A stretch of 64,000 bases of DNA from Actinomycetota bacterium (GCA_037446725.1 JBBIIC010000010.1:1114-65113), one strand, 5' to 3'; shown: positions 30,199 to 58,954, counted from the first letter of the stretch. Notes: generated by a model from the letters alone, not told the origin. A program made the numbers and translations.

Positions 30199-30313
30199 GA
30201 CCGATGCGACCGCCCCTCTGCCCCGACACATGCGTGCCCGAGGCGTCGAACCAAGGATACGACAACGCCCGTCAGTCGACGAATCGCGTCGGCTCGGGCG
30301 TCAGGTTCGCGAC

Positions 30314-44348: not shown

Positions 44349-45011
44349 CTAGGGAGTCGTTGTGGCCTCCCCGGAGGGCGGGGCTGCCTTGATCTCGGCA
44401 AGGAGGTTCTCCGCTGCCGACGCACTGTTGCCCTCAGGCTCCAGTTCAAGGTAGCGCTCGAGATTCGCGATGGCCTTGTCTGGCTGACCAGCGAAGCGGT
44501 AGATGACCCCGGCGTTGAAGTACGCAGGTGCGAAGTCGGGCGAATCGACCTGGACCGTCTCAATCACCTGGATCGCGGCCTGCGTCTGGCCGGAGTAGAA
44601 CAGCGCAACAGCGAAGTCCGTGGCGACGTTCGGGTCACCGGGTTCGATCTGTAGCGCGCGGTCGTACAGCGTCGCGGCGGAAAGCCACATCGGCAGGTCG
44701 TTGCCCGTAGTCGTCCCGACGGTCTGCTGGATCTGCAGCCCCCAGTCGAAATACGTGTTGCCGAGGCCCACCATCGCCGTGTAGCTCGTCGGCTCACTCG
44801 CAAGGGCAGCCGTGTAGGAGTTCACCGCCGGCAGGTGCTCGTTCGCGATCCGCTCGAGGGCCGCTCCCGTCTCAGTTGCACCGCTGGCATCCTGATTGCC
44901 GGCCTCGTTCCCGAGGAACAGCGCGGGGATGATGCTCACGACGAAGGCGAAGGCGACGAAGATGAGGACCGCCTTGACCCAGATCGACGACTGCTTCTTG
45001 TTGATGGCCAC
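44349..45011 (-). CDS. Membrane-anchored TPR-repeat protein
   Basis: 220 aa. N-terminal TM helix (IWVKAVLIFVAFAFVVSIIPALFLG), then TPR-like repeats (LGNTYFDWG, YDRALQIEPGDPNV, YFNAGVIYRFAGQPDKAIANLERYLELEP). Confidence 0.7.
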   Translation of the reverse strand: MAINKKQSSIWVKAVLIFVAFAFVVSIIPALFLGNEAGNQDASGATETGAALERIANEHLPAVNSYTAALASEPTSYTAMVGLGNTYFDWGLQIQQTVGTTTGNDLPMWLSAATLYDRALQIEPGDPNVATDFAVALFYSGQTQAAIQVIETVQVDSPDFAPAYFNAGVIYRFAGQPDKAIANLERYLELEPEGNSASAAENLLAEIKAAPPSGEATTTP

Positions 45012-45014
45012 GCG

Positions 45015-45392
45015 CTACTCGCTCCCGCCCTCAGGCGTCGCGGTCGCCTCGCCGCCGCCCATGCCACCGATGTCGGGATGGCCCTCAGGCATGCCGCCCT
45101 GCATCGCTTCATCGGACAACGGGGGCGCCGGCTGGATTGCGGAAGGCAGCCCACCCGCCGGTGAACCAGCCTCCTGCTGGCCCGTGGGGATGAGGATGCC
45201 GATGATGACGCCGACGAGCAGCGCCACAACGCCGATGAGCCCGGCAACTGTCACCGTCACGCTCTGAGCGCTCGCGGGGGCCACAGCCTTGGGGCGCGGG
45301 GCGGGCGCTGACTGGTGGCCGGAGGCCTGCTTGGCGGCCGGCTTCTCGGCAGCCTGCTCTTCGTCGTCGAAGAAGAAGTCCTGGTCACTCAC
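45015..45392 (-). CDS. Small single-pass membrane protein, unknown function
   Basis: 125 aa. Acidic N-terminus MSDQDFFFDDEEQ, TM helix VTVAGLIGVVALLVGVIIGILI, and an exported Gly/Pro-rich tail with MPEGHPDIGGMGGG. Confidence 0.5.
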   Translation of the reverse strand: MSDQDFFFDDEEQAAEKPAAKQASGHQSAPAPRPKAVAPASAQSVTVTVAGLIGVVALLVGVIIGILIPTGQQEAGSPAGGLPSAIQPAPPLSDEAMQGGMPEGHPDIGGMGGGEATATPEGGSE

Positions 45393-45426
45393 GGGTCGTT
45401 TCCCTTCTACTGTGGCAGGTCGCGCC

Positions 45427-45882
45427 TCAGCAGCCGTTCCGGAATCCGGAGTCGCCGCCGCGGCACCGCGCGATTATAGCACGCACCCTCGGCGCTTCAC
45501 CGGCAACCTCGAAACGCCGGTCGAAGCGTCTGAGAGAGACGAGCGCCAGCGCACCGGCGCCGATCCCGATCACCGCACCGAGCGCGTCGGGTGCGAACTT
45601 CGCCCAGGTCCCAAGCAAGAAGCCAGCCAGATACCCGCCGCCTATCGCCGTCACAGGAACTACATAGATGAGTCCCTGTGCGCGACGGCGCGCGCGCAGC
45701 GGCGTCTCGACCTCGACGGTATCCCCCACACCCGCCCCCTGGTCGTTGAGAGCCCCTTCGAGCAGGCGCTTTCCGCCCACTCCCTCGGCACAGCCGCCAC
45801 ACGCCTCGCACGCCGCGGACGGCTCGATGGCGACGTGAACCATGTCGCCGGTGACGCAGACGACGGTGCCGCGTTCGCGCAC
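45427..45882 (-). CDS. rseC: RseC/MucC-family (SoxR-reducing-system RseC-like) protein
   Basis: 151 aa. N-terminal GTVVCVTGDMVHVAIEPSAACEACGGC motif and two C-terminal TM helices. Confidence 0.75.
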   Translation of the reverse strand: MRERGTVVCVTGDMVHVAIEPSAACEACGGCAEGVGGKRLLEGALNDQGAGVGDTVEVETPLRARRRAQGLIYVVPVTAIGGGYLAGFLLGTWAKFAPDALGAVIGIGAGALALVSLRRFDRRFEVAGEAPRVRAIIARCRGGDSGFRNGC

Positions 45883-45883
45883 C

Positions 45884-47233
45884 CTAAGGCCTCAGCTTGT
45901 CGCGCATCTCTTCGGCGCGAGCCTGGATGCGGTCCATATCGAGAAGGCTCCACCGTCCAGTGTCGTAGAGCACCTGGCCGGCAACCATCGTGAACATCAC
46001 GTTCTCTTGGTTCGCGGTGTGCACGAGCGTGCTGTACGGGTAGAGCGTGGGGATCTGGTGGCTGTGCGAGATGTCCACCGCGATGATGTCGGCGTGCTTG
46101 CCCGGCTCGAGCGACCCGATCCGATCGTCCAGGCCGAGGGCGCGCGCCGCTTCCAGCGTGCCCATCTTGACGAACTGACGGGCGATGAGATGCGGCTCGT
46201 ACCCGGCGACCGAGCGCTGGATGAGCAGCCCTATCCGCATCTCGTCGAACATGTCGAGAGTGTTGCTCGCCGCCGGGGAGTCGGTACCGATGCCGACCCG
46301 AACGCCGCGCTGGAGCAGACTGCCGAGCGGGGCGACGCCCATACCGAGCTTGGCGTTGCACCTCGGACAGTACGCCACCGCGACGTCGTGCGCGGCAAGC
46401 GTCTCGATGTCGGCGTCGTCGACCTGCGTGCAATGCACCGCGAGGATCTGTGGAACGTCGAAAAGACCCCATTGGTCGATGTAGCGTACCGGGCTGACGC
46501 CCGTCGGCAGCCAGCCGAGGTCCGAACTCGAGTAGGTGTCGCGGTAGTCGACCGCCAGGCGCGAGCTTCCGTACTTGACGAAGTCGTACTCGTCCTTGGA
46601 GCCGGCGACGTGCATGGAGACCGGCAGATCATCGGCGATCGCCTTCTCGGCGACCTGGCGGTAGACCTCCGGATGGCAGCTGTACGTCGCGTGGGGGGCG
46701 ATGCCCACGGTCAGGCGGGAGGGGTCGCCGTACTCGCGCCATGCGGCGATGTCCTCGCTGGCTTTCGCCATCACGCCGCTGACCTCACGCTTGTCCATCG
46801 TCGAGACCTCGCGGTAGATCACCGCGCGCAGCCCCGATCCGGCAGCCGCCCGCGCCGAGGCGCCGGTCTCGGTGATGTCGGCGATGGTGGTGATGCCCGA
46901 CCGCAGCGCCTCGGCTGCCCCGAGGTGGGCCGACTCCTCCCAGTCATCGCCATTAAGACGATCCTCGCGGTCGAGAAGCTGCAGTTTCCACTGCGAGTAG
47001 GGCAGGTCGTCCACCAGCCCACGCATCACGGAGTACTCGAGGTGTGTGTGCAGGTCGACCAGCCCCGGCATCAAGACTGCCAGCCCGAAGTCGCGGACCT
47101 CCTCGTCAGGATGTGCAGCCTTGAGCTTCTCGAGCTCGCCGATCTCGACGATGCGGTCGCCCTGAACGAGCACAGCGCCGTCGACGATGTGCGGAGCGGC
47201 TATGGGCAGCACGTACCGGGCAGCGAGTAGCAT
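45884..47233 (-). CDS. Metal-dependent amidohydrolase (MtaD / aminofutalosine-deaminase / chlorohydrolase-like)
   Basis: Track ORF 45884..47266. ATG at 47233 (MLLAARYVLPIAAPHIVDGAVLV...) with GGGGGA upstream. PGLVDLHTHLEYS (HxH), AVHCTQ, and GTDSPASN. The subfamily is not resolvable by eye. Confidence 0.8.
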   Translation of the reverse strand: MLLAARYVLPIAAPHIVDGAVLVQGDRIVEIGELEKLKAAHPDEEVRDFGLAVLMPGLVDLHTHLEYSVMRGLVDDLPYSQWKLQLLDREDRLNGDDWEESAHLGAAEALRSGITTIADITETGASARAAAGSGLRAVIYREVSTMDKREVSGVMAKASEDIAAWREYGDPSRLTVGIAPHATYSCHPEVYRQVAEKAIADDLPVSMHVAGSKDEYDFVKYGSSRLAVDYRDTYSSSDLGWLPTGVSPVRYIDQWGLFDVPQILAVHCTQVDDADIETLAAHDVAVAYCPRCNAKLGMGVAPLGSLLQRGVRVGIGTDSPAASNTLDMFDEMRIGLLIQRSVAGYEPHLIARQFVKMGTLEAARALGLDDRIGSLEPGKHADIIAVDISHSHQIPTLYPYSTLVHTANQENVMFTMVAGQVLYDTGRWSLLDMDRIQARAEEMRDKLRP

Positions 47234-47294
47234 CGACGTCCCCCTGCAGACTAGGTGTGTCGCCATTCTAGCAGCAAGAAGTCAGTCTGAGGGC

Positions 47295-47398
47295 GGCGGG
47301 GAGGGCTGTACGGCGAGTTCTGCAGCACGGAGGGAAGGCGCGGAGCGCCGAGGGCCCCTCCGCGCGAAGCCTGCCTGAGCCGGGCAGCCCTCCCCGCC
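47295..47398. other. Nested inverted-repeat (structured) intergenic element
   Basis: Outer arms GGCGGGGAGGGCTG (47295-47308) / CAGCCCTCCCCGCC (47385-47398). Inner hairpin GCGCGGAG (47338-47345) / CTCCGCGC (47358-47365). It lies between the ubiE stop and the amidohydrolase start. Confidence 0.45.
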
Positions 47399-47411
47399 GA
47401 CCCCCCGCCCG

Positions 47412-48167
47412 CTACTTCACAGCGGTGTGGATGGCGACGATGCCGCCGGTGCGGTCCTCCCAGGAGATCGCGGTGAACCCGGCGGCGCGCAGCTCGGCGG
47501 CAAGCGCGCCCTGCGACGGGAACGAGCGGATCGAGTCGTTGAGGTAGACGAAGGACGCCCGGTCGCGGGTGAGCAGCCCGCCGATGGCGGGGATCACGAC
47601 GCGCAGATAGACGTGGTAGAGCCAGCGCCACGGCGCGAAGGGCGGGCGTGAGAACTCGAGGATCACGTAGCGGCCGCCCGGCCTGAGTACGCGCAGGACC
47701 TCGGCGAGGTTGGCCTCGCGGTCCGGGAGGTTCCGCACCCCGAACGCCACGGTCACAACGTCGAAGGATGAGTCAGGAAACGGCAGGTCCTGCGCATCGG
47801 CTACCGAGAAAGACACCTTGGTGCGCCCCTTGAATCCCCGCGCCTTCTGCTCCGCGACCGCAAGCATCTCGGGCACGAAGTCGGTCCCGACCACCTCGGC
47901 CGGCCGGCCCTGCCGGGCGAGCGCAAGCGAGAGGTCACCCGTGCCGGCACACAGATCGAGTACGCGGCTCGAGGTCTTGAGATTGGCGGCCTGCACGGCA
48001 GCGCGGCGCCACGAGCGGTCGATCCCGAAGCTCGAGAGGATGTTGAACAGGTCGTACTTGTCCGCGATGAGGGAGAAGATGCCCCGGACGCGGTCGGCGG
48101 TGGGCTCACCGGGCGCAGGCGCCGCGGTGCCGCTCACGCCGTCGCGCTCGTCGATCGTGACGGACAT
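47412..48167 (-). CDS. ubiE: Demethylmenaquinone / ubiquinone-type C-methyltransferase (UbiE/MenG family)
   Basis: Track ORF 47412..48257 trimmed to the ATG at 48167 (MSVTIDERDG...). YDLFNILSSFGIDRSWRR and VLDLCAGTGDL (SAM motif I). TGATG overlap with the radical SAM stop. Confidence 0.85.
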   Translation of the reverse strand: MSVTIDERDGVSGTAAPAPGEPTADRVRGIFSLIADKYDLFNILSSFGIDRSWRRAAVQAANLKTSSRVLDLCAGTGDLSLALARQGRPAEVVGTDFVPEMLAVAEQKARGFKGRTKVSFSVADAQDLPFPDSSFDVVTVAFGVRNLPDREANLAEVLRVLRPGGRYVILEFSRPPFAPWRWLYHVYLRVVIPAIGGLLTRDRASFVYLNDSIRSFPSQGALAAELRAAGFTAISWEDRTGGIVAIHTAVK

Positions 48168-49957
48168 CAGGCCTCCGGGGTCTCGCACGCAGGACGGGGC
48201 CCGGGCACGGGGGGCTTCCGGGACCCGAACAGGGTAGCGAGATTCTCCCTCACCCACAACACGACGACATGGTAGACGTGGCGCGCGTGGATGTAGCGCG
48301 GCCAGTTGAGCTCGCTCTTCTCGCAGACGGTCGACTCGCTCAGCCGGTCGACCTCCCCCTTGAGCGCGGCGAGCTTGCGCTCGCGCACCGCGGCATCGGA
48401 CTCGCCCATCACGGAGTCGATGCGCTCCATGGCCTCGCGCGCCTGTAGGATGCGGTCCTCGGTGCGCGAAGCGACCCCGGGCTCGATGAGACCGAGACGG
48501 CCCTTGAGACGGTTGAGGCGCAGGCCCACCTCATACATCGTGTCGACCATCTCGTCTTTGGACAACGCATCGCTCTCGTAGTTCATGATGTACTTCCACG
48601 AGGGCCGCACGAGCAGCTGCCGATGCTCCTCCAGCGTGTCCGCGAGTAGCGTGTAGCCGTACTTCTCCGGGTTGTCATAGACCATCGAGCCCGGATCGAG
48701 GAACGGCGCCATCGGCGAGGAGAAGCACAACAGCCGCTTGTCGTTGTCGACCTGTGCGTAGAGCGATTCGAGGTAGGCGGGTGTCTCGAGCACCGAGGCG
48801 GCCGTTTGGGTCGGGATGCCGGTCATCATGTAAAGGTCGAACCGCGAACAGCCGTTGCGCAGCGCCGCGGCGATCGACTGTTCGACCTGAGCCGTCGTGT
48901 AGTGCGTCTTGCCGAACGCGGCCCGCACGTCGTCGTCGTGCGTCTCGATGCTGATCTCGACCGAGTAGTCGTCGAGGTGCTCGTTCAAGAAGCGGTAGAA
49001 GTCCTCGGCCGGCGGCTTGAAGAACTCGAACCCGATGGGATTGCGCAGGTTGATCTTCGAGAGCCCGCGTATGAACGCGGCGGTGTAGTCCCGTCCGGCC
49101 TGCAGGAAGTCGTTGAGCACGAAGATCGGGCCCGGGATGTACTTCTGGAAGTGCTCGATGTCGCGGACGAGCAGTTCGGGATCTCGGAAGGCGACCCGGT
49201 CGCGCCCGTAATGCGTGCGGAATGAGTACGCCGAGCCCCCGCACGTCACGCAGTTGCGCGTGCATCCGCGGCACGTCAGCGAGGCGCAGACGGGGTACTG
49301 CAGCCAGTCCTTGAACGGCACGAAGCCCATCATGTCGCGGTAGCGGATGACGGCCTTCATGTTGAAGGAGTAGTCGAGCGAGATGTCGTTCATGTCGCCG
49401 GGGACCCACTCGAACGGCGTGCTGTGCACCGAGCCCTGCCGCGTGGTGTAGGTGAGGTTGGGGATGTCGTCAACGCGTCCCTTGGCCTTGAGCGCGTAGA
49501 GCAGCCGCGTCATCGGCTCCTCGGTCGAGTCGCCACGCACCACGTAGTCGACCCACGGGTAGCTCGCCAACTCCTCGTGGAAAAAGCTCGCCGACAGCCC
49601 GCCGAAGATGACCGGCGTGTCGGGGTGGTACTTCTTGCAGATCTTCGCGATCTCGACCGACCCGTGGGCGTGCGGCAGCCAGTGCAGGTCGATGCCGAAG
49701 GCCACCGGGTTCATCTCACGGATGGCCTTCTCGACGTCGAAGCCCGGCTTGTTGAGCATGAGCACCGCGAGGTTGACGATGCGGACCTTCAGTCCGTGGC
49801 GCTCCATGTACTCGGCCATGGTCGTGAAGCCGAGCGGATACATCTCGAAGACAGGGGTCGAGGGCACCATGTCGGACACGGGTCCGAACATGATGGAGCG
49901 CTCTCTAAAGTCATACACGCTCGGTGCATGGAGCAGTACGAGATCGACACGCGACAT
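48167..49957 (-). CDS. Cobalamin-binding-domain (class B) radical SAM protein, function unknown
   Basis: 596 aa. N-terminal B12-binding-like region (VDLVLLHAPSVYDFRERSIMFGPVSDMVPSTPVFEMYPLGFTTMAEYMERHG) and a CX3CX2C cluster CTRNCVTC. GGAGGA lies 10 nt upstream. Confidence 0.8.
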   Translation of the reverse strand: MSRVDLVLLHAPSVYDFRERSIMFGPVSDMVPSTPVFEMYPLGFTTMAEYMERHGLKVRIVNLAVLMLNKPGFDVEKAIREMNPVAFGIDLHWLPHAHGSVEIAKICKKYHPDTPVIFGGLSASFFHEELASYPWVDYVVRGDSTEEPMTRLLYALKAKGRVDDIPNLTYTTRQGSVHSTPFEWVPGDMNDISLDYSFNMKAVIRYRDMMGFVPFKDWLQYPVCASLTCRGCTRNCVTCGGSAYSFRTHYGRDRVAFRDPELLVRDIEHFQKYIPGPIFVLNDFLQAGRDYTAAFIRGLSKINLRNPIGFEFFKPPAEDFYRFLNEHLDDYSVEISIETHDDDVRAAFGKTHYTTAQVEQSIAAALRNGCSRFDLYMMTGIPTQTAASVLETPAYLESLYAQVDNDKRLLCFSSPMAPFLDPGSMVYDNPEKYGYTLLADTLEEHRQLLVRPSWKYIMNYESDALSKDEMVDTMYEVGLRLNRLKGRLGLIEPGVASRTEDRILQAREAMERIDSVMGESDAAVRERKLAALKGEVDRLSESTVCEKSELNWPRYIHARHVYHVVVLWVRENLATLFGSRKPPVPGPRPACETPEA

Positions 49958-50222: not shown

Positions 50223-51401
50223 CTACGGCGACACCGATCCGCGCACGTGGCACTCGGCGCAGTACGTCGGCGCATGGCAGTCGAAGCATGCCTGCGCTCC
50301 GGACTCGCGCACCGGATCCATGTGCTGCTGGATCCACGTCCGGGCAGGATCGATCTCACCGTGGTGACAGTCGTTGCAGAAGTCGGCGCCGGGCTGACTT
50401 GCGTGGCACCTCTCGCAGACCTCGGGACGCGTCTTGCCGTCTTCGCCGTGGTCCTCCCCGAAGCCCTCGGGATGCGGCATCTGCACGCCGTGGCAACCGT
50501 CGCAGAACTCGCGCTCGTTGTGGCAGGTCTGGCAGTACCCGACCGCCGCGACGGGCGGCAGGTGCAGGAGCTGCTCTTCCATCGGGGCGTCGGTGTGCGG
50601 CTCCTCGAGGCCCTCACGTGCGGCCGTGTAGGCCGCGTAGTCCTCGTTGGCGAGCGCCGCGTGGCCGCCGCTCTCACCAAACGCCTCGTAGAAGCCCGGC
50701 TCGTCGTGATTAGCAGGCATGAGATCGAAGTCCGCAGGGTGGCATGCCTCGCACTCGCCCGGCGCGACGATGCCGCTCACCGACTCACCGCTTGTCGTAT
50801 GACAGCGGTAGCACGCCGCCATGAGCATGAAGTCCTCGTGCGGCTGGTTGGGCTCCCCGGTGTTGGGGTCGGTCAAAGTGAGTTCGAAGTCCTCTACGTG
50901 TGCGGTCCGGTTGTGGCAGACCGTACAGTGGATCTCGGCCTCCTCGTGTACAGCGTGGTCGATGATGATGCCTTTGCTCGGCGTGACGTTGCGGTTCTCA
51001 AGCCAGTGGCACTGGTTGCACTGCTTCGAGCCCATATGCGCACCGTCGAGCGCGAGATGCGAGCCCTTGTTCAGGGGCAGCTCGAACTTGTTGGTCGCGG
51101 TGAGGTAGAGCTCGCCGAGTGCCTCGGCCTTGTGGAGCAGGAAAGTGACCGGGTCGGCGTTCACCGGCATATGGCACGCCATACACGAGATCTCCGAGTG
51201 CGGCGAGCGATTGTACGCGAGGATAGTGTCGTCCTGAACCTTGTGGCACCCCTCGGCGCAGAACCAGTACGTCGAGGTGACGCCGAGCGCGGCAATCACG
51301 AACGCGGCGAGCCCGATGACCCCCGCGGCGGTCCAGGCGATGTAGCGGGGACGCCTGACCGGATCCGTGTAGCCGGAGAAGAATCCCCTCACGTCTGGCA
51401 T
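50223..51401 (-). CDS. Membrane-anchored dodecahaem cytochrome c with NapC/NirT/NrfH-like N-terminal module
   Basis: 392 aa. One TM helix (YIAWTAAGVIGLAAFVIAALGVTSTYWF) is followed directly by C48AEGCH (CX3CH). There are 11 further CXXCH motifs, at C73, C128, C159, C197, C217, C290, C300, C329, C342, C372 and C381. Confidence 0.9.
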   Translation of the reverse strand: MPDVRGFFSGYTDPVRRPRYIAWTAAGVIGLAAFVIAALGVTSTYWFCAEGCHKVQDDTILAYNRSPHSEISCMACHMPVNADPVTFLLHKAEALGELYLTATNKFELPLNKGSHLALDGAHMGSKQCNQCHWLENRNVTPSKGIIIDHAVHEEAEIHCTVCHNRTAHVEDFELTLTDPNTGEPNQPHEDFMLMAACYRCHTTSGESVSGIVAPGECEACHPADFDLMPANHDEPGFYEAFGESGGHAALANEDYAAYTAAREGLEEPHTDAPMEEQLLHLPPVAAVGYCQTCHNEREFCDGCHGVQMPHPEGFGEDHGEDGKTRPEVCERCHASQPGADFCNDCHHGEIDPARTWIQQHMDPVRESGAQACFDCHAPTYCAECHVRGSVSP

Positions 51402-51504
51402 CCGTGCAATCCCTGTCTCCTCAGCGCGACCACGTACCCCGCTTCACAACCGTATCATGCCACAAGCCCGGGAACCCGGCGGCGAACCCGCGTCATGCGC
51501 CCGC

Positions 51505-54063
51505 CTAGTAGTACCAGTCCGTGACCCCGGGCGCGGTGACATACACGGAGCCGAATATCTCTCCGCCATCGTAGATGTCGTTCCAGTACACGTACACATT
51601 GTAGGGAGCCGCCTGCACCGGGACGTTGTTGATGGTCGAGATGCCGTTCCAAGAGGGCCCGCCGTCGTTGCCGGATGCAATCAGCCGCCCGTTCGTGCTG
51701 TTGCGTACCTCGTAGTACACACTCTCGTTGTTGCCACCCACGAATCCCGTCCACAGCAACCGGAGGGTCGCCGTCGGGCTCGACACGGTGAAGGTCGCCC
51801 TGTTGACGGGCTCGACGTTGCCGACCGAGTCGACCGACCAGAACTCGAGAGTGTGGTTTGCGCTGCCGCCGACTGGCGGCGCGGGCACGTTGACCGTCGT
51901 CCCCGTCTGCTGCGCGCCACCGTTGAGCCGATAGTGTGTGGCTGCGACAGTCGAGTGGGCATCGGTTGCCGTCAGCGTGATGGTGGCTGGTCCGATGTAA
52001 GAGGGCTGCGCGTTCGACGTCGTCACCGGCGGTGTCGTGTCGGCCGCAACCGTGAACAGGGCGGTCTTGCGAGCCTCGCTGTTGCCCAATTTGTCCAGCG
52101 ACCAAAACTGGATCGTGTGCACCCGCGTGCCGGAGAGGGGCGGCAGCACTCGTATGGTGGTGCCCACCTGGACCGGGCCTCCGTCGATCGTGTAGTAGGT
52201 GCGCCTGAGCCCGTGGACGAGCGAGTAGTACGGCACGTCTACGTCCGCAGCGGTCAGCTGGATGGTGGCACCACCGATGTAGGAGGCCACGGCGTTCGAG
52301 TTGGTCAACGGCGGGGTTGTATCTGTCACGTGACACCGTGCGCACAAGTTGAACGAAGCGTAGTCCCAGCCGCCACCCCAGGTCTTATTGTGGCAGCTCC
52401 AGCAGTTGTCGCCGACGTCGAACGGATGGTCGTACGCGATCCCTTCAGTCCGGTGGTTGAAGTCCGAGTGGACAGAGGAATGGCAGCCGCCCTGGCTACA
52501 GGTGGCGGACCACTCCGTGAACGTGTCTCGCGGGGTCGGATGGCACGAGGAGCAATCCGTGCCGTGAACGGTGGCCACGTTGGCGTTGCTGTGACACGGG
52601 TCGCAGGTGTAGGTGTCCCCTTCGATCTGGCTCGTCATCAGCGAGTAGTCGGCCGCGTGGCCGTGAGGCTCGAGTTGAGCGGAGTGGCAGGTGCCGCAGT
52701 CGAAGGTCGGCGACACTCCCGAATGGCACGCATCGCAGCCCGGGAGAGGCTCACCGGTGACCACCGAGCTCCCGAAGTGGATGTCGATCGCGTCTCCGGC
52801 TTCATGGCATGCGGTGCACTCCGTATACTCTTCGGGCACCTCGTGCAGCAACGAATGGCAGTTGAGACAGAGGCCATAACGGGGAGTCGACGCGTCCTCC
52901 ACGGCGGGTTCGATTGGTCTCACCAGGAAGTACTCGACGTCGCTCTCGTGCGGGAACACCTGGAACCGCGGGTTGTCGGTCGACTCCACACTCGGCGAGG
53001 TCGTCACGTTCTCGGAAGCATATGACGTGACCGAGAACTCCTGTCCTGCCAGCAGCGTCGGGTTCGTCCCTCGCTCGGACGGACCGACATCTCGCGCATC
53101 CTCGTGGCACTGCTGACAGATCGGTCCTCTGCCTTGCTGCAACTCGGTGCGCGCGGTCGTCTCCATCGATTCGCGGGGCATGATGTATCCGGCGTTGTCC
53201 TGGCCGAGGCTCCCGATCATGGTCTGCGTGGAGTCGACACCGTCAACGACCGGCAGGCGGTCGTAGTAGTACGCATCGCCCTCCGGCGCGACCAGGTCGT
53301 TCTCGACCGTATGGTCGCGCATGAGACCCGAGTCCTCGCGGTGCTGTCCGACACGTCCCTGGTGGCACGAAGCGCACCAGGCCGTGCCATACACGCCTAC
53401 GGTGGTCTCCGAGCTGCCGGGGGACTGTTTGAGCAGCCGATTGGTCCTGACGGCGTAGGCGGCATCACTTGCGACTGAAGAGCGCAGCCGATCGCCGAGG
53501 AAGGGCTCGATGGTCTCGGTATCGTGCGGTGAATGGCAGTCGCTGCACGTGAGTGTGCCGCCGGGACCCGAAAAGACCCCGGCGCTGCTCGTGGTGCCCA
53601 CCGAGCCGCCGGGGATGACACTCGTCGCCTCAATGCTGTGAGTCGCGGCCGGTTCCAGCCCGGTCCTGGCCTTGATCACACCGTAGACACCGGTCCCACC
53701 CGTCCCGTCGTGGCATGATTCGCAGGTCGCCTTGATCGTGGCCCCCGGCAGGAGCTTCACACCGGCGACCGGCGCCGCGTGAACCGAGTGGCAGGCCTGG
53801 CACTTGTTGGTGCCGGTCGTGAACGCGCCGTGCGGGCCCTTGCGGGTGTCGGCGGTCGGCGTGGTCTCGCTGCTCGACTCGAGGACCGCCTGCTCGGTGA
53901 GCCCGTGACAGTCGATGCACTGACTGCGGGCGACGCCTTCGGGGTAGGTAGCACTCTCGCTGGGATAGGCGAACGCGGCAGCGGCGGTCAGGAAGACCGC
54001 GCACGCCGCAATGGCGGCAACAGCTGCTGCTCTCGACAACCTCATCCGCGCCGATCTCCGCAT
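51505..54063 (-). CDS. Exported pentadecahaem cytochrome c with two tandem Ig-like surface domains and a C-terminal beta-sandwich-like domain
   Basis: 852 aa. Signal peptide (MRLSRAAAVAAIAACAVFLTAAAAFA; start 54063 or 54045). There are 14 CXXCH motifs, at C49, C88, C114, C173, C230, C316, C399, C416, C443, C456, C487, C504, C554 and C574, plus one CX4CH (C522SQGGCH). Repeats at aa 581-674 and 675-762. No LPXTG or SLH motif seen. Confidence 0.9.
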   Translation of the reverse strand: MRRSARMRLSRAAAVAAIAACAVFLTAAAAFAYPSESATYPEGVARSQCIDCHGLTEQAVLESSSETTPTADTRKGPHGAFTTGTNKCQACHSVHAAPVAGVKLLPGATIKATCESCHDGTGGTGVYGVIKARTGLEPAATHSIEATSVIPGGSVGTTSSAGVFSGPGGTLTCSDCHSPHDTETIEPFLGDRLRSSVASDAAYAVRTNRLLKQSPGSSETTVGVYGTAWCASCHQGRVGQHREDSGLMRDHTVENDLVAPEGDAYYYDRLPVVDGVDSTQTMIGSLGQDNAGYIMPRESMETTARTELQQGRGPICQQCHEDARDVGPSERGTNPTLLAGQEFSVTSYASENVTTSPSVESTDNPRFQVFPHESDVEYFLVRPIEPAVEDASTPRYGLCLNCHSLLHEVPEEYTECTACHEAGDAIDIHFGSSVVTGEPLPGCDACHSGVSPTFDCGTCHSAQLEPHGHAADYSLMTSQIEGDTYTCDPCHSNANVATVHGTDCSSCHPTPRDTFTEWSATCSQGGCHSSVHSDFNHRTEGIAYDHPFDVGDNCWSCHNKTWGGGWDYASFNLCARCHVTDTTPPLTNSNAVASYIGGATIQLTAADVDVPYYSLVHGLRRTYYTIDGGPVQVGTTIRVLPPLSGTRVHTIQFWSLDKLGNSEARKTALFTVAADTTPPVTTSNAQPSYIGPATITLTATDAHSTVAATHYRLNGGAQQTGTTVNVPAPPVGGSANHTLEFWSVDSVGNVEPVNRATFTVSSPTATLRLLWTGFVGGNNESVYYEVRNSTNGRLIASGNDGGPSWNGISTINNVPVQAAPYNVYVYWNDIYDGGEIFGSVYVTAPGVTDWYY
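51778..52323 (-). repeat. Tandem duplication encoding two ~90-aa Ig-like domains inside the cytochrome gene
   Basis: DTTPPLTNSNAVASYIGGATIQLTAAD...YYTIDGGPVQVGTTIRV...HTIQFWSLDKLGNSE...FTVAA is followed by DTTPPVTTSNAQPSYIGPATITLTATD...HYRLNGGAQQTGTTVNV...HTLEFWSVDSVGNVE...FTVSS. Confidence 0.8.
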
Positions 54064-54134
54064 CCGCTCACAGACGGAGATCCCACTGAGTACACCATAT
54101 CTGTGATTATGGAATCATCCCTATTCTGGCACCG

Positions 54135-54150
54135 TGTGAGCTACGTCACA
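54135..54150. promoter_or_regulatory. Perfect palindrome TGTGA-GCTACG-TCACA (Rex- or CRP/FNR-type operator candidate) upstream of the cytochrome genes
   Basis: The 18-mer GTGTGAGCTACGTCACAA (54134-54151) matches the Rex consensus TTGTGAA-N4-TTCACAA at 11 of 14 specified positions. It is also identical to the CRP core TGTGA-N6-TCACA. It lies 72-87 nt upstream of the ATG at 54063. A left half-site, TGTGATTATGGAATCA, is at 54102-54117. Confidence 0.5.
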
Positions 54151-54289
54151 ATCATACCCTGGTACGAGGGGTCGTCCGTCGCCGGTCGCACCCGCCTTCA
54201 CACCCATTATGGGCACCTGCCGGAACGCGATGCCCGCGACGGGGGCTCAGACCAGAGAACCTCCACATTCCACGCGGAGTCGCCCCTCG

Positions 54290-55396
54290 CTACCGGGCGA
54301 GCCGCAACACCTGGATCCGGTCGTTCTCCTTGTCCGCGATGAGCAGAAGCTCGCCGTCTTCGGACACGTCGATCCCGTTCGGGAAGTTGAGCTGTGCGGG
54401 CAGGACGCCACGCGTACCTACCGAGGTCTGCGGCGTGCCCTTCCCGTCGAGCAGGACCACCGAGAACGTGAACGCATCTACCACGGCGAAGGTGTCCTCA
54501 TCGACGACCGCGATTCCTCTCGGCAACCCGAACTCGTAGGGTGTCCCCCCCTGCGCGCCCGTCTCCCACATGAATACCCCGTCAAGTGTGAAAGCCTGCA
54601 CCCGGCCGTTGTTCGAGTCGGCGACGAGTACGGTCGAATCCGGCATGATCGCGATCCCGTTCGGCCGCGCGAACTCCCCGGCGCCGCTGCCGGGCCGGCC
54701 GAACTGGCGCACGAACTCGCCGTCCTTGGTGAAGACGACCACCTGGTAGCTGTCGAGCGCATACACGAGATCGCCCCACAGCGCGACGTCGGTGACCGCG
54801 ATCCCGGTGCCGTCCTGTCCTGAGGCGCCGCGCCCCACCACGGTGTTCGGATCGGGGAAGCGTCTCAGGAAACGGCCCTGCTCGTCGAACACCTGGATCT
54901 GGTCGTTGCGGAAGTCGGCGACGTAGACATCACCGTCTTCGTCCACTTCTATACCCAGCGGCGAGTTCATGAGACCCGCCTCCCAGGTGGCCTCGTAGCC
55001 CGGAAGCGGCTTCGTGAGCCCGAACCCACCGAAAACGAAGAGGAAGCGTCCGCTCGGTCCGAACGCTGCCACCCTGTTGTTCTCGGTGTCGACTACGTAG
55101 ATCTTGCCGTCGGGCGCGAACGCCGCGTCCATCGGGCGGTCGAACCCCGGCGCGTCTCCCCTGCCGGGACCCGATATGGTCATCACGGGAGTCAGGCCGG
55201 CAATCGTCTCTCCCCCGCGAGTCACGAACCCGTCGGGCGTGGAGGGGTAGGAGATCATGTAGACGACGAGGCCGATGAGGACGATGGCAAGGAGGACAGC
55301 GGTCAGGATAAGGAGTCGTCTCGCGGACAAGAGACGGACGGCCAGGCCGCCATCATCCGTCGGCGTGACCTCGACCGGCGGCTGCCGTTCGCTCAC
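54290..55396 (-). CDS. Membrane-anchored NHL-repeat six-blade beta-propeller protein
   Basis: 368 aa. TM helix LLILTAVLLAIVLIGLVVYMI, then six NHL-like repeats (FDRPMDAAFAPDGKIYVVDTENNRVAAF, LNSPLGIEVDEDGDVYVADFRNDQIQVF, FARPNGIAIMPDSTVLVADSNNGRVQAF, LNFPNGIDVSEDGELLLIADKENDRIQVL and others). Confidence 0.88.
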   Translation of the reverse strand: MSERQPPVEVTPTDDGGLAVRLLSARRLLILTAVLLAIVLIGLVVYMISYPSTPDGFVTRGGETIAGLTPVMTISGPGRGDAPGFDRPMDAAFAPDGKIYVVDTENNRVAAFGPSGRFLFVFGGFGLTKPLPGYEATWEAGLMNSPLGIEVDEDGDVYVADFRNDQIQVFDEQGRFLRRFPDPNTVVGRGASGQDGTGIAVTDVALWGDLVYALDSYQVVVFTKDGEFVRQFGRPGSGAGEFARPNGIAIMPDSTVLVADSNNGRVQAFTLDGVFMWETGAQGGTPYEFGLPRGIAVVDEDTFAVVDAFTFSVVLLDGKGTPQTSVGTRGVLPAQLNFPNGIDVSEDGELLLIADKENDRIQVLRLAR

Positions 55397-56094
55397 GGTG
55401 TCACCCCCAGACGATTGAGACCCGCGAGCGCCTCCTCGAGACCCGGATCGTAGCTCAGGGCGATCCGGTAGCGCTCCTCGGCCAAGCCTGGCTGTCCGAC
55501 CTGCTCGTAGGCCTCCCCAAGTAATGCCTGCAGGTCAGCGCTATGGGGATCCTCCGAGAGGGCGGGAGGCAGGATCTCCGTGACACGCGCCCACTCCCCC
55601 CGCTCGGCGAGACGCCGGGCGAGAAGTGCCGCTGCCAGCGTGTGGGTTGGCCAGGCTTCCAGGGTCGCCTCAAGGAGCTCTTCTGCCTCGGCCCCACGGC
55701 CGAGTTCGATCAGGCACACGGCACCGTTGTAGAGAGCGGCCGGCTCGTCCTTCCGCACGGACAGCACTGCCTCATACTCCTTGACAGCGTCGGCATACCT
55801 GCCGGATTCCTGGTACGCATAGCCGAGGACAAGCCGCGCGTCTAGATCGTCGGGGTTCGCCTCCAGCGTTGCTGAGAGCTCAGCGATGCGCTCCTCCTGC
55901 GGACCGGCATGCCGTCGTTCCCCGCCGCCAACGGTGAGCACGACGAGCACCCCAGCTCCCACGACCGCAACGGCGAGTACGACGACGAGGGTCACGAGCC
56001 GGCGAGGAGCCTCGGCGGCCGTGTCGCGAACGTCGTTCGGGTCGGTCGGGGCGTCGGGTCCGCTGATCTCGGGTGTGCCGACTTCTAGGGTCAC
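55393..56094 (-). CDS. Membrane-anchored TPR-repeat protein
   Basis: 233 aa. TM helix LVTLVVVLAVAVVGAGVLVVLTV, then TPR repeats (LVLGYAYQESGRYADAVKEYEAVL and others). 4-nt overlaps on both sides. Confidence 0.8.
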   Translation of the reverse strand: MTLEVGTPEISGPDAPTDPNDVRDTAAEAPRRLVTLVVVLAVAVVGAGVLVVLTVGGGERRHAGPQEERIAELSATLEANPDDLDARLVLGYAYQESGRYADAVKEYEAVLSVRKDEPAALYNGAVCLIELGRGAEAEELLEATLEAWPTHTLAAALLARRLAERGEWARVTEILPPALSEDPHSADLQALLGEAYEQVGQPGLAEERYRIALSYDPGLEEALAGLNRLGVTP

Positions 56095-56729
56095 GCAGAC
56101 GCACTCCGTGGGCTGAGGTGGAACGATAGTATCTGCAACTCGCCTGCCACGTCTGCCTGACGAACTTCGACCCCTTCGGGTACCTGAAGCTGAACGGGAG
56201 CGAAGTTCATGATGGCCCGCACACCTGAGGCGACAAGGCGGTCTGCCACCCCCTGCGCGTTAGCCGCCGGCACGGTGATGATGGCAATCTCGACGCCCTC
56301 GCGGTCAACGACCGCCTCGAGGTTGTCCGCGTCTTCGACCGTATGGCCGTCGACGGCCGTCCCGATCTTCGCGGGATCGGCGTCGAGCACCGCGACGACC
56401 TTCATGCCGCGCTCTTCGAACCCCGGGTAGCTCTGCAGCGCGCTGCCGAGGCGCCCATATCCGACGATGGCGACGCGCCGGTGCTCGGTCAGCCCGAGGT
56501 GCTTAGAGAGATGGCTGATGAGCAAGTCGACGTCATAGCCGATGCCCCTCACCCCGAACTCCCCGAGATACGAGAGGTCCTTGCGCACCTGCGCGGCGTT
56601 GGTGCCCGCCATCTCGGCGATCTGCACCGAGTTGACCACGGGCATATGCAACGCGCTCGCCTGAACGAGACAGCGCAGGTAAACCGGCAGGCGTTGTACG
56701 GTCGTGGGAGGGATCTGGGGTGCCTTCAT
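56091..56729 (-). CDS. rex: Redox-sensing transcriptional repressor Rex
   Basis: 212 aa. VQRLPVYLRCL, VRKDLSYLGEFGVRGIGYDV, and Rossmann motif VAIVGYGRLGSAL. Confidence 0.93.
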   Translation of the reverse strand: MKAPQIPPTTVQRLPVYLRCLVQASALHMPVVNSVQIAEMAGTNAAQVRKDLSYLGEFGVRGIGYDVDLLISHLSKHLGLTEHRRVAIVGYGRLGSALQSYPGFEERGMKVVAVLDADPAKIGTAVDGHTVEDADNLEAVVDREGVEIAIITVPAANAQGVADRLVASGVRAIMNFAPVQLQVPEGVEVRQADVAGELQILSFHLSPRSASA

Positions 56730-56776: not shown

Positions 56777-58954
56777 CTATGTCCCTGCCGCTCCTGCCGC
56801 CTGGATCATCTCGTCTATGCCCGGGAAGGATGGTTCGAGACGCTTGATGCGTTCGAACTGCTCGAGAGCCTTCTGCGGTTGGCCGTCCCGAAGGTAGATC
56901 TCACCGAGTATCTTGCTCGGGTCGACGTACGCAGGGTCGAGCTCGATCGCGAAGAGCAGCTCTTCGATGGCCGCATCCGTCTGACCCGTGGCGTCGAGCG
57001 CGACCGCGTACTGGAATCGTATACCCGGTCCGAACTCGCTCACCTCGATGCCCTTGCGCGCCCAGCGGAGCGCCTCCTGGAAGTAGCTGGGAGAGAGGGC
57101 CTGGCCCGCGATGTTGTAGACGTTCGCGATGAACATGTAGTTGTCGTACTCGTAGGGCACGAACTCGATCGTCTCGATGAGTGCCGCCTCGGCCGAACGC
57201 AGCGCGGACTCGGCCCGCGCCAGTGTCTCCGAGGTGTCCATACCAGCCTCGGCCTCGGTCCGCTCGCGCTGCAGGTACCCGAGGAACGTCTCGACGCGAA
57301 CGAGGGCGACCTGCGAAAGGTACATGTCGTTGTAGGGATTGAGCCTCACGGCCGCCTCGGCCCGCGCCAGCTTGAGCGAAGAGGTCTCGGCCAGGCGCGC
57401 GTCGAGGTAGTACCGGTCCGCGAGCAGGTAGACGAAATTGCCTACCGAGAGGACGACGACCGCGACGCACACGAGTGCGGCCGCGATGCGGCCCCATCCG
57501 GGTGGCTTGACCTCCACGGCTCGGGCGTCGGGCGACATCAGGGCGGCGAACGCGATCCAGGCCAGGAACGTCGAGCCCGTCACCGAGATGCCGAAGGTCA
57601 GGTGGACCAGGTATCCGATCACCGCCGCCCACATGCCGGAGAGGACGAGGCTTCCGTCGGCGCTGCCGGACAACCCCTGCCGCGCGAAAGCGGTCCTGAA
57701 GGACAGCACGAGCACGGCGATGAACAGGCCGTAGAGCAGCATCATCCCCGGGATCCCGACTCCCGAGGAGAGCTGAAGGACGTAGTTGTGGGCGTTGTCA
57801 GCAACCGACTGGTGACCGGCGGCCGCCGCATACTCCATCGGCTTGAACCCCGGGAAGATCAGGCGGAAGGTGTCCGGCCCGAACCCGAAGAGCGGCCGCT
57901 CCAGGGTCGCACGCCACGCAGCGTCCCAGATCTGGAAGCGTGTCACGGCGCTACCCTGATCGAACTCGGCTATGGACACGAGCCGCTTCCACGCGTTCAT
58001 GACGGGGTCGTCCGCCATCAGGCTGCGTCCAACCACGATGGCGGACAGCACTGCGATCGCACCCGCGAATGACCAGTCTACCGAGGTGAGTGCCGACCTT
58101 CTGCGCCACGCCGCGATTCCGAGCGCGACGATCGCGACAGCCCCCCCTATCCACGCTCCTCGCGTGAACGCCACGACCCAGCAGATCACCGCAAGCACTG
58201 ACCCGGCCCAGTAGACGATCCGCAACCGTTGCTCGCGCTCGGAAAGCGCGAGCGAAAGCGAGATAGGCAGCAGGATCACGAGGAAGCCGCCGAGCAGGTT
58301 CGGGTTCCCGTAGAAGGAGAACGCCCGGTTCGCCTCGAAGGGAAGCTCGGCCCACGACAGCGGATCGAGACCGAGATACTGAAGGACGCCGTAGCCGCTC
58401 ACGAGGACGCCCGAGTAGAAGAGCGTGCGGGCCAGCGCGCGGAGCCGGGAGAGGCGGTCGAGGTATTGGACCGCAAGGAAGTAGACCACCGCGTAGTTGA
58501 TGAGCGACAGCATACCCTCGAAGCGCCGGTACTTGCCAAACACCGCAGTCGCGGGATGTACGGACAGCAACGTCGACACGGCGAACCAGCCGAGCACTGC
58601 CAGAATGAGGTAGTCGATCTTCGTCCGCCTGACCGTGCCCCCGTGAACGAGGATGTGGAGCAACCACCCCGCGAAGGCCACCAGCGTGATGCCGCGCAGG
58701 AAGACGACCTTGATGATGTCGAACTGATCGTACGAGAACGGCCACTCGACGCCGGGCAGCCACGTCCAGTTGGAGATGATCACCGGCACCAGGAAGACCA
58801 TGGCATGCAGTCCGTACCACCCGATGCGCTGCGCGGTGGACATCTCGTCGTTCGACCCGGGCGTCGCGGGGCTCGCAACCTGTGCCGCAGATGACGTCGC
58901 GCGACCCTTCCCGGGTGTACCTTTCCCGCGGGACGCCCCGCCTGACTTGGCCAC
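56777..58954 (-). CDS. O-antigen ligase/polymerase-family (Wzy_C) membrane protein fused to C-terminal TPR domain
   Basis: 725 aa. About 12 TM with the Wzy_C signature region (FTRGAWIGG, RFQIWDAAWRATLERPLFGFGPDTF, NAHNYVLQLSSGVGIPG). The C-terminal ~230 aa carry TPR repeats. Confidence 0.82.
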   Translation of the reverse strand: MAKSGGASRGKGTPGKGRATSSAAQVASPATPGSNDEMSTAQRIGWYGLHAMVFLVPVIISNWTWLPGVEWPFSYDQFDIIKVVFLRGITLVAFAGWLLHILVHGGTVRRTKIDYLILAVLGWFAVSTLLSVHPATAVFGKYRRFEGMLSLINYAVVYFLAVQYLDRLSRLRALARTLFYSGVLVSGYGVLQYLGLDPLSWAELPFEANRAFSFYGNPNLLGGFLVILLPISLSLALSEREQRLRIVYWAGSVLAVICWVVAFTRGAWIGGAVAIVALGIAAWRRRSALTSVDWSFAGAIAVLSAIVVGRSLMADDPVMNAWKRLVSIAEFDQGSAVTRFQIWDAAWRATLERPLFGFGPDTFRLIFPGFKPMEYAAAAGHQSVADNAHNYVLQLSSGVGIPGMMLLYGLFIAVLVLSFRTAFARQGLSGSADGSLVLSGMWAAVIGYLVHLTFGISVTGSTFLAWIAFAALMSPDARAVEVKPPGWGRIAAALVCVAVVVLSVGNFVYLLADRYYLDARLAETSSLKLARAEAAVRLNPYNDMYLSQVALVRVETFLGYLQRERTEAEAGMDTSETLARAESALRSAEAALIETIEFVPYEYDNYMFIANVYNIAGQALSPSYFQEALRWARKGIEVSEFGPGIRFQYAVALDATGQTDAAIEELLFAIELDPAYVDPSKILGEIYLRDGQPQKALEQFERIKRLEPSFPGIDEMIQAAGAAGT

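Follow-up and report, generated by a model that had tools for sequence, protein, structure and literature searches.

A rex-TPR-NHL-cytochrome cluster as a candidate extracellular electron-transfer module in an Actinomycetota genome

Introduction

How a Gram-positive bacterium might pass respiratory electrons across its wall, and what an NHL propeller does beside the cytochromes that would carry them, are the two questions raised by a cluster of five minus-strand genes in a 64,000-nucleotide (nt) stretch of DNA from an Actinomycetota bacterium (GCA_037446725.1 JBBIIC010000010.1:1114-65113). Hereafter, this whole stretch is called the window, and positions are counted from its first letter. The cluster encodes Rex, a TPR protein, an NHL-propeller protein and two multihaem cytochromes of 852 and 392 amino acids (aa), which together carry 27 haem sites (15 + 12) by motif count. 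To our knowledge, extracellular electron transfer (EET) of Gram-positive bacteria has been detailed at the molecular level in a few Bacillota only, and we know of no component tested in Actinomycetota. We propose, with a probability of roughly 0.6, that the locus encodes a redox-regulated and quinol-fed EET conduit of a monoderm Coriobacteriia bacterium. If this is true, cytochrome-based mineral respiration would extend to a second Gram-positive phylum, and the locus would help to explain why NHL propellers accompany multihaem cytochromes.

Organization and conservation of the locus

ORF calling returned the five genes where an earlier note on this DNA had placed them (Table 1), and most of what that note had described was borne out. 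The rex and TPR genes, like the TPR and NHL genes, overlap by 4 nt according to their coordinates, an AT-richer gap of 226 nt separates the NHL gene from the cytochromes, and the labels given to the first three genes agree with NCBIfam, Pfam and structure matches. The rex, TPR and NHL genes thus form a translationally coupled unit with rex first. Judged by two NCBIfam equivalogs (NF003992, 277 bits versus a cut-off of 226; NF003995, 256 versus 126) and by its Put_DNA-bind_N and CoA_binding Rossmann domains (Pfam), the product of the first gene is a bona fide Rex, the NADH/NAD+-sensing transcriptional repressor. Each of the four envelope proteins (the TPR and NHL proteins and both cytochromes) has one N-terminal hydrophobic segment by hydropathy, and the export or anchor signals that the earlier note had wished to see checked are present in hydropathy profiles and family alignments alike.

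The TPR protein is matched by several Pfam TPR families, its best PDB matches are generic TPR proteins and its hydrophobic segment (aa 26-59) would span the membrane once. In 19 of 27 orthologues, the C-terminal flank of this transmembrane segment is richer in K/R than the N-terminal one and, by the positive-inside rule, the TPR domain probably faces the cytoplasm. The protein was also considered as a periplasmic apocytochrome chaperone of the CcmI/CycH/NrfG kind, a role which was rejected given its weak match to the CcmH/CycH TPR family PF23914 (23.4 bits versus a cut-off of 42) and the probable location of its domain.

The neighbourhood is conserved. By tblastn of the window proteins against 84 fetched loci, with which gene calls for loci L001 and L002 agree, about 30 loci from metagenome-assembled genomes (MAGs) of Coriobacteriia and Anaerosomatales have in common the order Wzy-like/TPR - rex - TPR - NHL - heptahaem cytochrome - variable stretch - 12-haem cytochrome - B12-binding radical S-adenosylmethionine (SAM) protein (TIGR04190) - MenG/UbiE - amidohydrolase, and the rex/TPR/NHL trio, whose conservation the earlier note had asked about, is kept in them. 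In about 25 of the related loci rex holds the same position and, likewise in about 25, it is preceded by the Wzy-like gene. In the window, the latter encodes a 725-aa Wzy_C/O-antigen-ligase-like membrane protein with C-terminal TPRs (56777-58954, minus strand) and ends 47 nt upstream of rex. The layout of the window, with the NHL gene followed by a long protein that joins a heptahaem module, eight haems and an Ig part, recurs in L001, L002, L006, L009 and L011, and the TPR-NHL-cytochrome cassette occurs as two consecutive copies in L002 and L006. The proteins of L001 are 78-82% identical to those of the window, and its segment 8000-9704 is devoid of the TPR gene, so that at least one lineage keeps the gene order without the TPR protein.

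The variable stretch lies between the NHL-adjacent cytochrome gene and the 12-haem gene. There, most relatives carry a secreted heptahaem protein of about 370 aa, often the system II haem-attachment proteins ResB and CcsA, a membrane-anchored 15-haem protein of about 500 aa and, sometimes, a giant Ig-domain cytochrome. In L020 (10308-14492), a 1394-aa protein with 15 haems and Big_5 Ig-like domains matches MtrC/MtrF domain II/IV above threshold (61.9 bits) and represents another type of giant surface cytochrome in this hotspot. Most relatives also have a second and diverged Rex-like gene, located directly behind the 12-haem gene, as in L002 (13888-14535), L020 (20188-20838) and L024 (18189-18848); its product, of about 215 aa, has 27% identity to Rex, and Pfam sees in it the N-terminal DNA-binding domain only. 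Both ResB/CcsA and the second Rex-like regulator are present inside L020 and L024. In the window, ResB/CcsA, the membrane-anchored 15-haem protein and the second Rex-like gene are absent, with a 265-nt gap where relatives carry the latter.

Regarding the host, the named homologues come from Coriobacteriia, Anaerosomatales and unclassified Actinomycetota MAGs, in line with the origin that the earlier note had deduced, and the GC content of the window (about 67%) agrees with that of the two cultured Anaerosomatales. Exact-sequence matching of five window proteins against a collection of 15 billion proteins gave no identical entry. The host is most likely a Gram-positive and monoderm member of the Coriobacteriia of Anaerosomatales type.

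An NHL propeller nested within a heptahaem module

After its signal peptide, the 852-aa cytochrome begins with a heptahaem module in which the seven CXXCH motifs and eight non-motif His are invariant in the family alignment; RKGPHG, CESCHDGTGG, PxCQQCHEDAR and NPRFQVFPHES are among its motifs. This module also exists alone, in the secreted proteins of about 370 aa encoded beside NHL genes in most related loci and, in 35 cases, the NHL gene is directly upstream of a heptahaem-module gene. A sister family of seven protein clusters (P0038-P0044; 613-688 aa, 6-7 haem motifs) unites both partners in one chain, the NHL propeller being nested between haem 5 and haem 6 of the heptahaem module. In P0038, aa 63-239 align with aa 74-255 of the 852-aa protein (48% identity) and aa 596-681 with its aa 304-404 (36% identity), while aa 263-536, in between, align with nearly the whole NHL propeller of the window (27% identity, E = 2e-17). 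The propeller enters at a loop, around aa 262-297 of the 852-aa protein, that the unfused proteins have conserved (YxYDxLPVVxGVxSxxTxxGxLGQSNxGYxMP). By Rosetta-stone reasoning, this nesting points to a physical partnership in which the separate NHL protein would dock onto the heptahaem module at the haem 5/6 loop.

The NHL protein itself is recognized by Pfam (NHL, 1.8e-30, and DUF5128 six-bladed propeller) and gives full-length matches to six-bladed TRIM-NHL structures. Its hydropathy profile has one transmembrane segment (aa 18-54), the N-terminal flank of which is the more positive one in 35 of 40 orthologues, and the protein is thus predicted to be membrane-anchored with its N-terminus inside and its propeller outside. 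Across 36 orthologues, no Cys or His is conserved, which together with the outward topology argues for a partner or a scaffold rather than a redox centre. Going further, we would put forward only tentatively, and with more doubt than confidence, that the NHL protein and the heptahaem module are an obligate two-part 'propeller-cytochrome', split in the window and fused in the sister family, whose propeller, through its binding of the acceptor, of a wall polymer or of a partner cytochrome, would fix the end point of the wire. Such a propeller-cytochrome would be the first mechanistic handle on the association of NHL proteins with multihaem cytochromes in Geobacter, Desulfovibrio, Tenderiales, Dethiobacter and others. 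The papers cited below on the NHL/TPR clusters of Dethiobacter, Desulfovibrio ferrophilus and Tenderiales do not mention an NHL-cytochrome fusion.

The same gene neighbourhood could be read otherwise, with only the two cytochromes as a module and with rex, TPR and NHL as a separate housekeeping or envelope operon that happens to lie beside a hotspot of cytochrome turnover, NHL and TPR serving wall or polysaccharide functions tied to the upstream Wzy-like gene. Indeed, the Wzy-rex-TPR-NHL order is very stable while the downstream cytochrome content is variable, the NHL gene stands 226 nt apart from the cytochrome genes, L001 has no TPR gene, the TPR protein is possibly cytoplasmic and the NHL protein has no redox ligands. 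We nevertheless consider this division unlikely: the seven fusion clusters carry a homologous propeller within their heptahaem module, the TPR-NHL-cytochrome cassettes of L002 and L006 were duplicated as units, the adjacency of NHL and heptahaem genes recurs in the 35 cases cited above and NHL proteins accompany multihaem cytochromes in unrelated EET systems.

The membrane cytochrome as a candidate quinol dehydrogenase

The 392-aa protein contains 11 CXXCH motifs and, as its first site, CAEGCH at aa 48. The count of 12 haem sites made earlier was therefore right, the non-canonical CX3CH spacing of the first one having passed unmentioned. Its transmembrane helix (aa 19-49) runs directly into this site, and the NapC/NirT N-terminal family (Pfam PF03264) matches aa 25-168 with 44.6 bits for a cut-off of 24.1, the sites at aa 48, 73, 128 and 159 lying within the match. 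A single N-terminal transmembrane helix with an adjoining tetrahaem c domain, a trait of the NapC/NirT/NrfH/CymA superfamily, is thus present, and the NapC/NirT-like label of the earlier note holds for a protein that carries extra haems. With scores far below the orthology cut-offs (TIGR03153, 36.3 versus 134.2 bits; TIGR02161, 19.7 versus 310.6), it is, by these family models, a distant superfamily relative and neither NrfH nor NapC.

Its family comprises more than 500 clusters, most of them 50-70% identical. In 70 sequences, the 12 haem motifs, CX3CH included, are invariant together with 11 non-motif His; one haem is consequently left without a conserved distal His, as is the quinol-site haem of NrfH/CymA. 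The only PDB sequence match is NrfH (2j7a_C, E = 0.008, a weak pairwise alignment), and K91 (invariant) and E97 (near-invariant) align with NrfH Lys82 and Asp89, which we take to be menaquinol-site residues. The AlphaFold model is reasonably confident (predicted local distance difference test, pLDDT, 77.8) and Foldseek of this model against the PDB returned no match. From these features, the 392-aa protein is predicted to be a menaquinol dehydrogenase. No catalytic partner gene (NrfA, NapAB, TorA etc.) is present within 45-60 kb of the window; the adjoining gene is that of the other multihaem cytochrome and, as the earlier note had stated, family searches of the neighbourhood found no molybdopterin or Fe-S partner gene near the cytochromes.

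Two forms exist in the family, with 12 haems (about 390 aa) or 24 haems (about 670 aa). P0059 (668 aa, 24 sites) has two extra tandem copies of the hexahaem unit that corresponds to aa 287-392 of the window protein, and P0064 and others are also of the long form. This addition of hexahaem units looks like a modular lengthening of the wire.

The exported cytochrome: wire or reductase?

In the 852-aa protein, motif counts gave the 14 CXXCH and the single CX4CH (CSQGGCH, aa 522) described before. The CX4CH motif is invariant in its family and, on account of this invariance, it is very likely a true haem site, as is the CX3CH of the membrane cytochrome. The hydrophobic stretch of the signal peptide spans aa 9-35, the A-x-A-Y-P cleavage junction is kept in 27 of 27 aligned family members and there is no lipobox Cys in the signal peptide, which ends AFA-YP. 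Beyond the heptahaem module, the second haem region consists of five family-wide sites, one of which is the CX4CH, and three confined to the closest relatives (aa 416, 443 and 456), which appear as a three-haem insertion in the alignment; family members accordingly have 12 or 15 haem sites.

The earlier note had also proposed surface-type Ig-like domains, and the C-terminal 270 aa or so are indeed modelled as three Ig/FnIII-like sandwiches resembling those of adhesins and S-layer proteins. In the AlphaFold2 model, built from a 27-sequence alignment, this part has a pLDDT of about 90 and its best Foldseek matches are the GhpA fibre, the SiiE adhesin, an S-layer protein and FnIII arrays; NCBIfam recognizes in the protein two copies of an OmpL47-type barrel domain (5.2e-23). 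On the strength of this model, we take the C-terminus to be a cell-envelope or surface-binding part.

The family is small. The first search gave 49 clusters, HMMER with the N-terminal 410 aa against 1.84 billion representatives gave 354 matches at E<=1e-3 and 66 at E<=1e-30, and the best full-length match in a genome scan is 48% identical. When the profile of the family was compared with all PDB chains (E<=1), the matches were confined to small cytochromes of c3/c7 type, with weak c7-repeat matches to Geobacter GSU1996 (PDB 3ov0), flavocytochrome c3, CcoP and an adhesin, and comprised neither a multihaem reductase nor a known EET cytochrome; the close homology to a solved reductase that the earlier note had asked about is hence not seen in this search, for which the presence of particular reductase, OcwA or filament entries in the PDB copy was not verified. 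A filament of the OmcS/OmcE/OmcZ type was discarded as well, no such chain being among these matches. We likewise set aside a derivation of the middle region from the 15-haem membrane cytochrome of the relatives (30% identity over 196 aa, E = 7e-7), this similarity being too weak for haem-rich sequences.

CXXCK, the catalytic-type haem site, is absent from both cytochromes, as the earlier note had observed, and from all 49 relatives of the 852-aa protein. Moreover, the eight invariant free His for the seven haems of the heptahaem module imply that all seven can be bis-His. It is the absence of CXXCK and this bookkeeping of histidines that support a wire rather than a reductase. The opposite possibility is that of a wall-space reductase acting on a soluble or colloidal compound, for which nitrite, sulfur oxyanions, Fe(III)-citrate and humics are candidates, with the 392-aa protein feeding a catalytic haem of the 852-aa protein in the manner of NrfHA. 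In its favour, the membrane protein that would feed it resembles NrfH, the five distal core haems of the 852-aa family can count on just two invariant distal His, and OcwA, a surface cytochrome of Thermincola, has been reported to reduce nitrite and hydroxylamine in vitro. A reductase seems to us improbable all the same, considering the lack of CXXCK in any family member, the lack of multihaem reductases among the PDB matches, a conserved module whose haems can all be bis-His and three Ig-like domains that typify surface proteins and not such enzymes.

A candidate operator upstream of the cytochrome genes

The 226-nt gap is taken to be the promoter region of both cytochrome genes. No sigma-70 consensus promoter was found in the cluster, this gap included, nor was any convincing terminator found within it. 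The gap contains the palindrome TGTGACGTAGCTCACA, which has no intergenic counterpart elsewhere in the 64 kb and is the window's best match to the extended Rex consensus (TTGTGAA-N4-TTCACAA). At 54134-54151, 11 of the 14 positions of this consensus are matched and the TGTGA-N6-TCACA core, which is also that of CRP/FNR sites, is perfect. Related loci provide 35 NHL-to-cytochrome gaps, among which sites with one mismatch or none number seven, for 0.15 expected from the rest of those loci (p about 2e-10, uncorrected for relatedness and intergenic composition). Paralogous heptahaem genes in L063, L064 and L066 are likewise preceded, at 70-105 nt, by exact or near-exact sites, and the site of L002, GTGAACGAGTTCAC, resembles the Rex consensus. 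We consequently regard TGTGACGTAGCTCACA as a candidate operator of Rex or CRP/FNR type, at which Rex is likely to be the regulator.

Operator-like matches of the TGCGACnnnTGTCACA type inside the cytochrome genes were rejected as merely C-D-x-C-H codons. In the 852-aa gene (window 52605-52620) and in several loci, TGCGACCCGTGTCACA-like matches are such codons, which constitute a trap for motif scans in cytochrome-rich genomes.

Proposed mechanism

While the anatomy of the locus, its conservation, the fusions and the enrichment of the operator are observed, we infer the direction of electron flow, the acceptor, the contacts among the proteins and which regulator acts. The 392-aa cytochrome, held by one helix in the cytoplasmic membrane, would oxidize menaquinol at its NrfH/CymA-like first haem on the outer face, a step proposed on the grounds of the protein's family and of the residues that it conserves. 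Eight more haems of this cytochrome, of bis-His type, would carry the electrons off the membrane, over a distance to which relatives would add hexahaem units, and would deliver them to the Sec-exported 15-haem cytochrome, presumably retained in the wall or at the surface by its three Ig-like domains. From the latter, the electrons would go to an acceptor that is outside the cell or unable to cross the wall, Fe(III) minerals or complexes being the likeliest. The outward NHL propeller, with no redox centre of its own, would bind the heptahaem module at the haem 5/6 loop and position or stabilize it. Finally, the TGTGA-N6-TCACA operator would switch the cytochrome genes, probably through the cluster's Rex, such that the conduit would be made when NADH accumulates.

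The EET reading of the cluster is supported by several lines of comparison. ResB/CcsA haem-attachment genes are found inside the loci of relatives, the set of multihaem cytochromes, NHL, TPR and CcsBA occurs in other EET systems, and the Anaerosomatales isolate whose cluster matches by description has a Gram-positive wall and obligately reduces Fe(III). An inward or bidirectional flow through the same hardware, from Fe(II), reduced minerals, cathodes or a syntrophic partner to the quinone pool, is still less probable than a reductase, for if multihaem wires are reversible in principle, if the closest gene-set analogue with NHL, TPR and CcsBA is the Uet cluster of electron-uptake Tenderiales, if the Dethiobacter clusters have been discussed for both Fe(III) reduction and Fe(II) oxidation (PMC10376724) and if OPB41/Anaerosomatales live in subsurface, mineral-rich settings, the cultured relative with the matching cluster description respires Fe(III) with H2 or formate, a Rex-type repressor suits an NADH-relieving electron sink better than an electron source and NrfH/CymA-type modules are normally quinol dehydrogenases.

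Several points weigh against an outward EET conduit, beginning with the fact that the locus and its orthologues are known from sequence alone. The 852-aa protein has no recognizable wall anchor (LPXTG, SLH or CW_binding_2), the pLDDT of its AlphaFold2 model is below 50 over the whole haem region, which makes the fold unusable there, and its full-length relatives often stand alone, in unrelated contexts, with neither the NHL nor the 12-haem gene. The last five core haems of its family have only two invariant free His, and a non-bis-His, possibly reactive haem is possible among them. The TPR domain is possibly cytoplasmic, the TPR gene is absent between rex and NHL in the closest long relative, L001, and the window contains no cytochrome c maturation genes. 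As to regulation, the operator core is common with CRP/FNR sites and has one mismatch to the Rex consensus per half-site. Two findings made on the cultured relatives have to be added. Anaerosoma tenue does not reduce Fe(III) despite 18 multihaem cytochromes (PMC9686372), and genes alone thus do not predict the phenotype; the authors state that 'genes are absent' from A. tenue, a wording ambiguous between the Rex gene and the whole cluster (PMC9686372). Furthermore, no respiratory quinones were detected in either isolate (PMC9686372), which is at odds with a quinol-dehydrogenase-type cytochrome encoded beside MenG.

Relation to known systems

The Thermincola potens EET chain is reportedly made of ImdcA, PdcA, CwcA and OcwA, according to work by Carlson in 2012 and Costa in 2019. 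In Carboxydothermus ferrireducens, OmhA, SmhA-C and putative quinol oxidases have been described (PMC7829351). The window has with these systems the likeness of a membrane multihaem quinol oxidase and of exported cytochromes that would bridge a thick wall towards a terminal reductase at the surface. It differs from them by its heptahaem module and Ig-like domains, by its phylum, which is Actinomycetota and not Bacillota, and by an 852-aa family for which the PDB profile search gave no known EET cytochrome at E<=1.

The closest published counterpart comes from the first Anaerosomatales isolates, Parvivirga hydrogeniphila and A. tenue (Khomyakova et al., 2022; PMC9686372). P. hydrogeniphila has a Gram-positive wall and 67.65% GC and is an obligate Fe(III) reducer on H2 or formate; ten genes of its genome, assigned by BLAST similarity only, include Rex, secreted multihaem cytochromes and a 'quinol-oxidising' multihaem cytochrome, and the OPB41/Anaerosomatales are found in subsurface, mineral-rich habitats (PMC9686372). 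The L020 and L024 loci (rex-TPR-NHL-heptahaem-ResB-CcsA-15-haem-12-haem-rex2) fit this ten-gene description, and MAG loci of this type are syntenic with the window. The taxonomic order, a GC content of about 67%, a Gram-positive Coriobacteriia host and the combination of Rex with secreted and quinol-oxidizing cytochromes are thus alike, as matched by the published description. Unlike loci of this type, the window is without ResB/CcsA, the membrane 15-haem protein and the second Rex-like regulator, and next to the NHL gene it encodes a long cytochrome with 15 haems and Ig-like domains. The earlier note had held such conduits to be essentially uncharacterized in Actinomycetota, which overstated their novelty in view of the Rex-linked cluster published for P. 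hydrogeniphila (PMC9686372).

With NrfH/CymA/NapC-NirT proteins, the 392-aa cytochrome has in common one N-terminal transmembrane helix followed by a tetrahaem module that scores above the Pfam cut-off; it differs by having 12 haems and not 4, CX3CH as its first site and no adjacent catalytic partner. Regarding MtrC/MtrF/OmcA, the Pfam MtrC/MtrF domain II/IV (PF22113) is found in 15 of 27 members of the 852-aa family (best 6.2e-11, 42.6 bits versus a cut-off of 30), the window protein itself giving no match at E<=0.01. The role of a surface-exposed terminal cytochrome would be similar, whereas the number of haems and the non-haem domains of the 852-aa protein are other ones, and at the locus there is neither a porin or MtrA-like partner gene nor a lipoprotein signal, by which MtrC/MtrF/OmcA would be recognized.

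The earlier note had called the presence of NHL propellers next to multihaem cytochromes recurrent and functionally unexplained, and the literature concurs. NHL/TPR genes are reported beside multihaem cytochromes in Dethiobacter alkaliphilus clusters (PMC10376724) and in D. ferrophilus (DFE_0451/0463; PMC5815863), and the Uet cluster of Tenderiales comprises the NHL proteins UetH/I, a TPR 'NrfG' and CcsAB (bioRxiv 10.1101/2022.05.06.490989). In all three, complex assembly or stabilization has been guessed for the NHL proteins, without evidence (PMC10376724; PMC5815863; bioRxiv 10.1101/2022.05.06.490989). Multihaem cytochromes, NHL and TPR genes are common to these clusters and to the window, the relatives of which also have the system II maturation genes. 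The window is unlike them in its monoderm host, in an NHL protein that would sit in the cytoplasmic membrane and in its sister family with a nested propeller.

The locus is therefore a variant architecture within a recognized kind, that of Gram-positive multihaem EET clusters with NHL/TPR genes, and its novelty is moderate since a cluster of matching description has already been published from the same taxonomic order. What is added here are the NHL-heptahaem fusions, a candidate operator with its enrichment, the 24-haem forms lengthened by hexahaem units and the topology of the TPR protein. Being conserved across the widespread subsurface OPB41/Anaerosomatales, which include a cultured obligate Fe(III) reducer, the locus is a practical entry point. 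It offers a candidate quinol dehydrogenase with a wire length tuned by hexahaem units, a lineage-specific heptahaem module together with a fusion that indicates the partner of the NHL propeller, and a defined candidate operator for the control of a respiratory electron sink by Rex. Its best use would be as a test case for the role of NHL propellers in cytochrome conduits.

Feature coordinates and the surrounding window

Table 1. Coordinates of the cluster, of its protein parts and of adjoining elements in the window.
Feature	Position	Strand	Remarks
rex	56091-56729	minus	212 aa
TPR protein gene	55393-56094	minus	233 aa
NHL protein gene	54290-55396	minus	368 aa
226-nt NHL-to-cytochrome gap	54064-54289	minus	GC 60.6% versus ~66% around
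Palindrome TGTGACGTAGCTCACA (TGTGA-N6-TCACA)	54135-54150	no strand	72 nt upstream of the 852-aa ATG
15-haem cytochrome gene	51505-54063	minus	852 aa
Signal peptide, aa 1-32	53968-54063	minus	hydrophobic aa 9-35; ends ...AAAFA-YP
Heptahaem module, aa 33-410, haems 1-7	52834-53967	minus	from alignment
Eight further haem sites, aa 411-580, including CX4CH	52324-52833	minus	from motif positions
Three tandem Ig/FnIII-like beta-sandwiches, aa 581-852 (~270 aa)	51505-52323	minus	from AlphaFold, NCBIfam
12-haem cytochrome gene	50223-51401	minus	392 aa
Transmembrane anchor and NapC/NirT/NrfH-like tetrahaem module, aa 1-170	50892-51401	minus	from Pfam, hydropathy
Eight-haem extension, aa 171-392	50223-50891	minus	ends in hexahaem unit
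B12-binding radical SAM protein (TIGR04190) and MenG/UbiE methyltransferase genes	47412-49957	minus	directly downstream of the cytochromes

Downstream of the cytochromes, the radical SAM and methyltransferase assignments exceed their NCBIfam cut-offs (TIGR04190, 621 bits versus 500; MenG_MenH_UbiE, 240 versus 158), and in more than 10 loci these two genes accompany the 12-haem gene. Their products may have a part in the supply or modification of quinone, and we consider the two as context genes with a candidate link to the module. Together with an amidohydrolase that scores below the cut-off for aminofutalosine deaminase, this radical SAM protein (of an uncharacterized family) and MenG/UbiE occupy 45884-49957 on the minus strand and are conserved downstream in many loci. 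After the amidohydrolase come, at 44349-45882 on the same strand, the genes of an RseC/MucC-family protein, a small protein with one transmembrane segment and a membrane-anchored TPR protein, a trio that is also found in L001 and L002, ahead of two STAS-domain genes, TatA, TatC and HypA.

Farther away, a complex-I-type operon on the minus strand (20597-30231) contains nuoA, C, D, H, J, K, L, M and N by Pfam. Its nuoD (27716-28921) abuts nuoH (26709-27719), leaving no room for an NADH-oxidizing NuoEFG module. The rest of the window is ordinary chromosome, with genes for Rho, homoserine dehydrogenase, ArgRS, topoisomerase I, Tat, HypAB and envelope polysaccharides.

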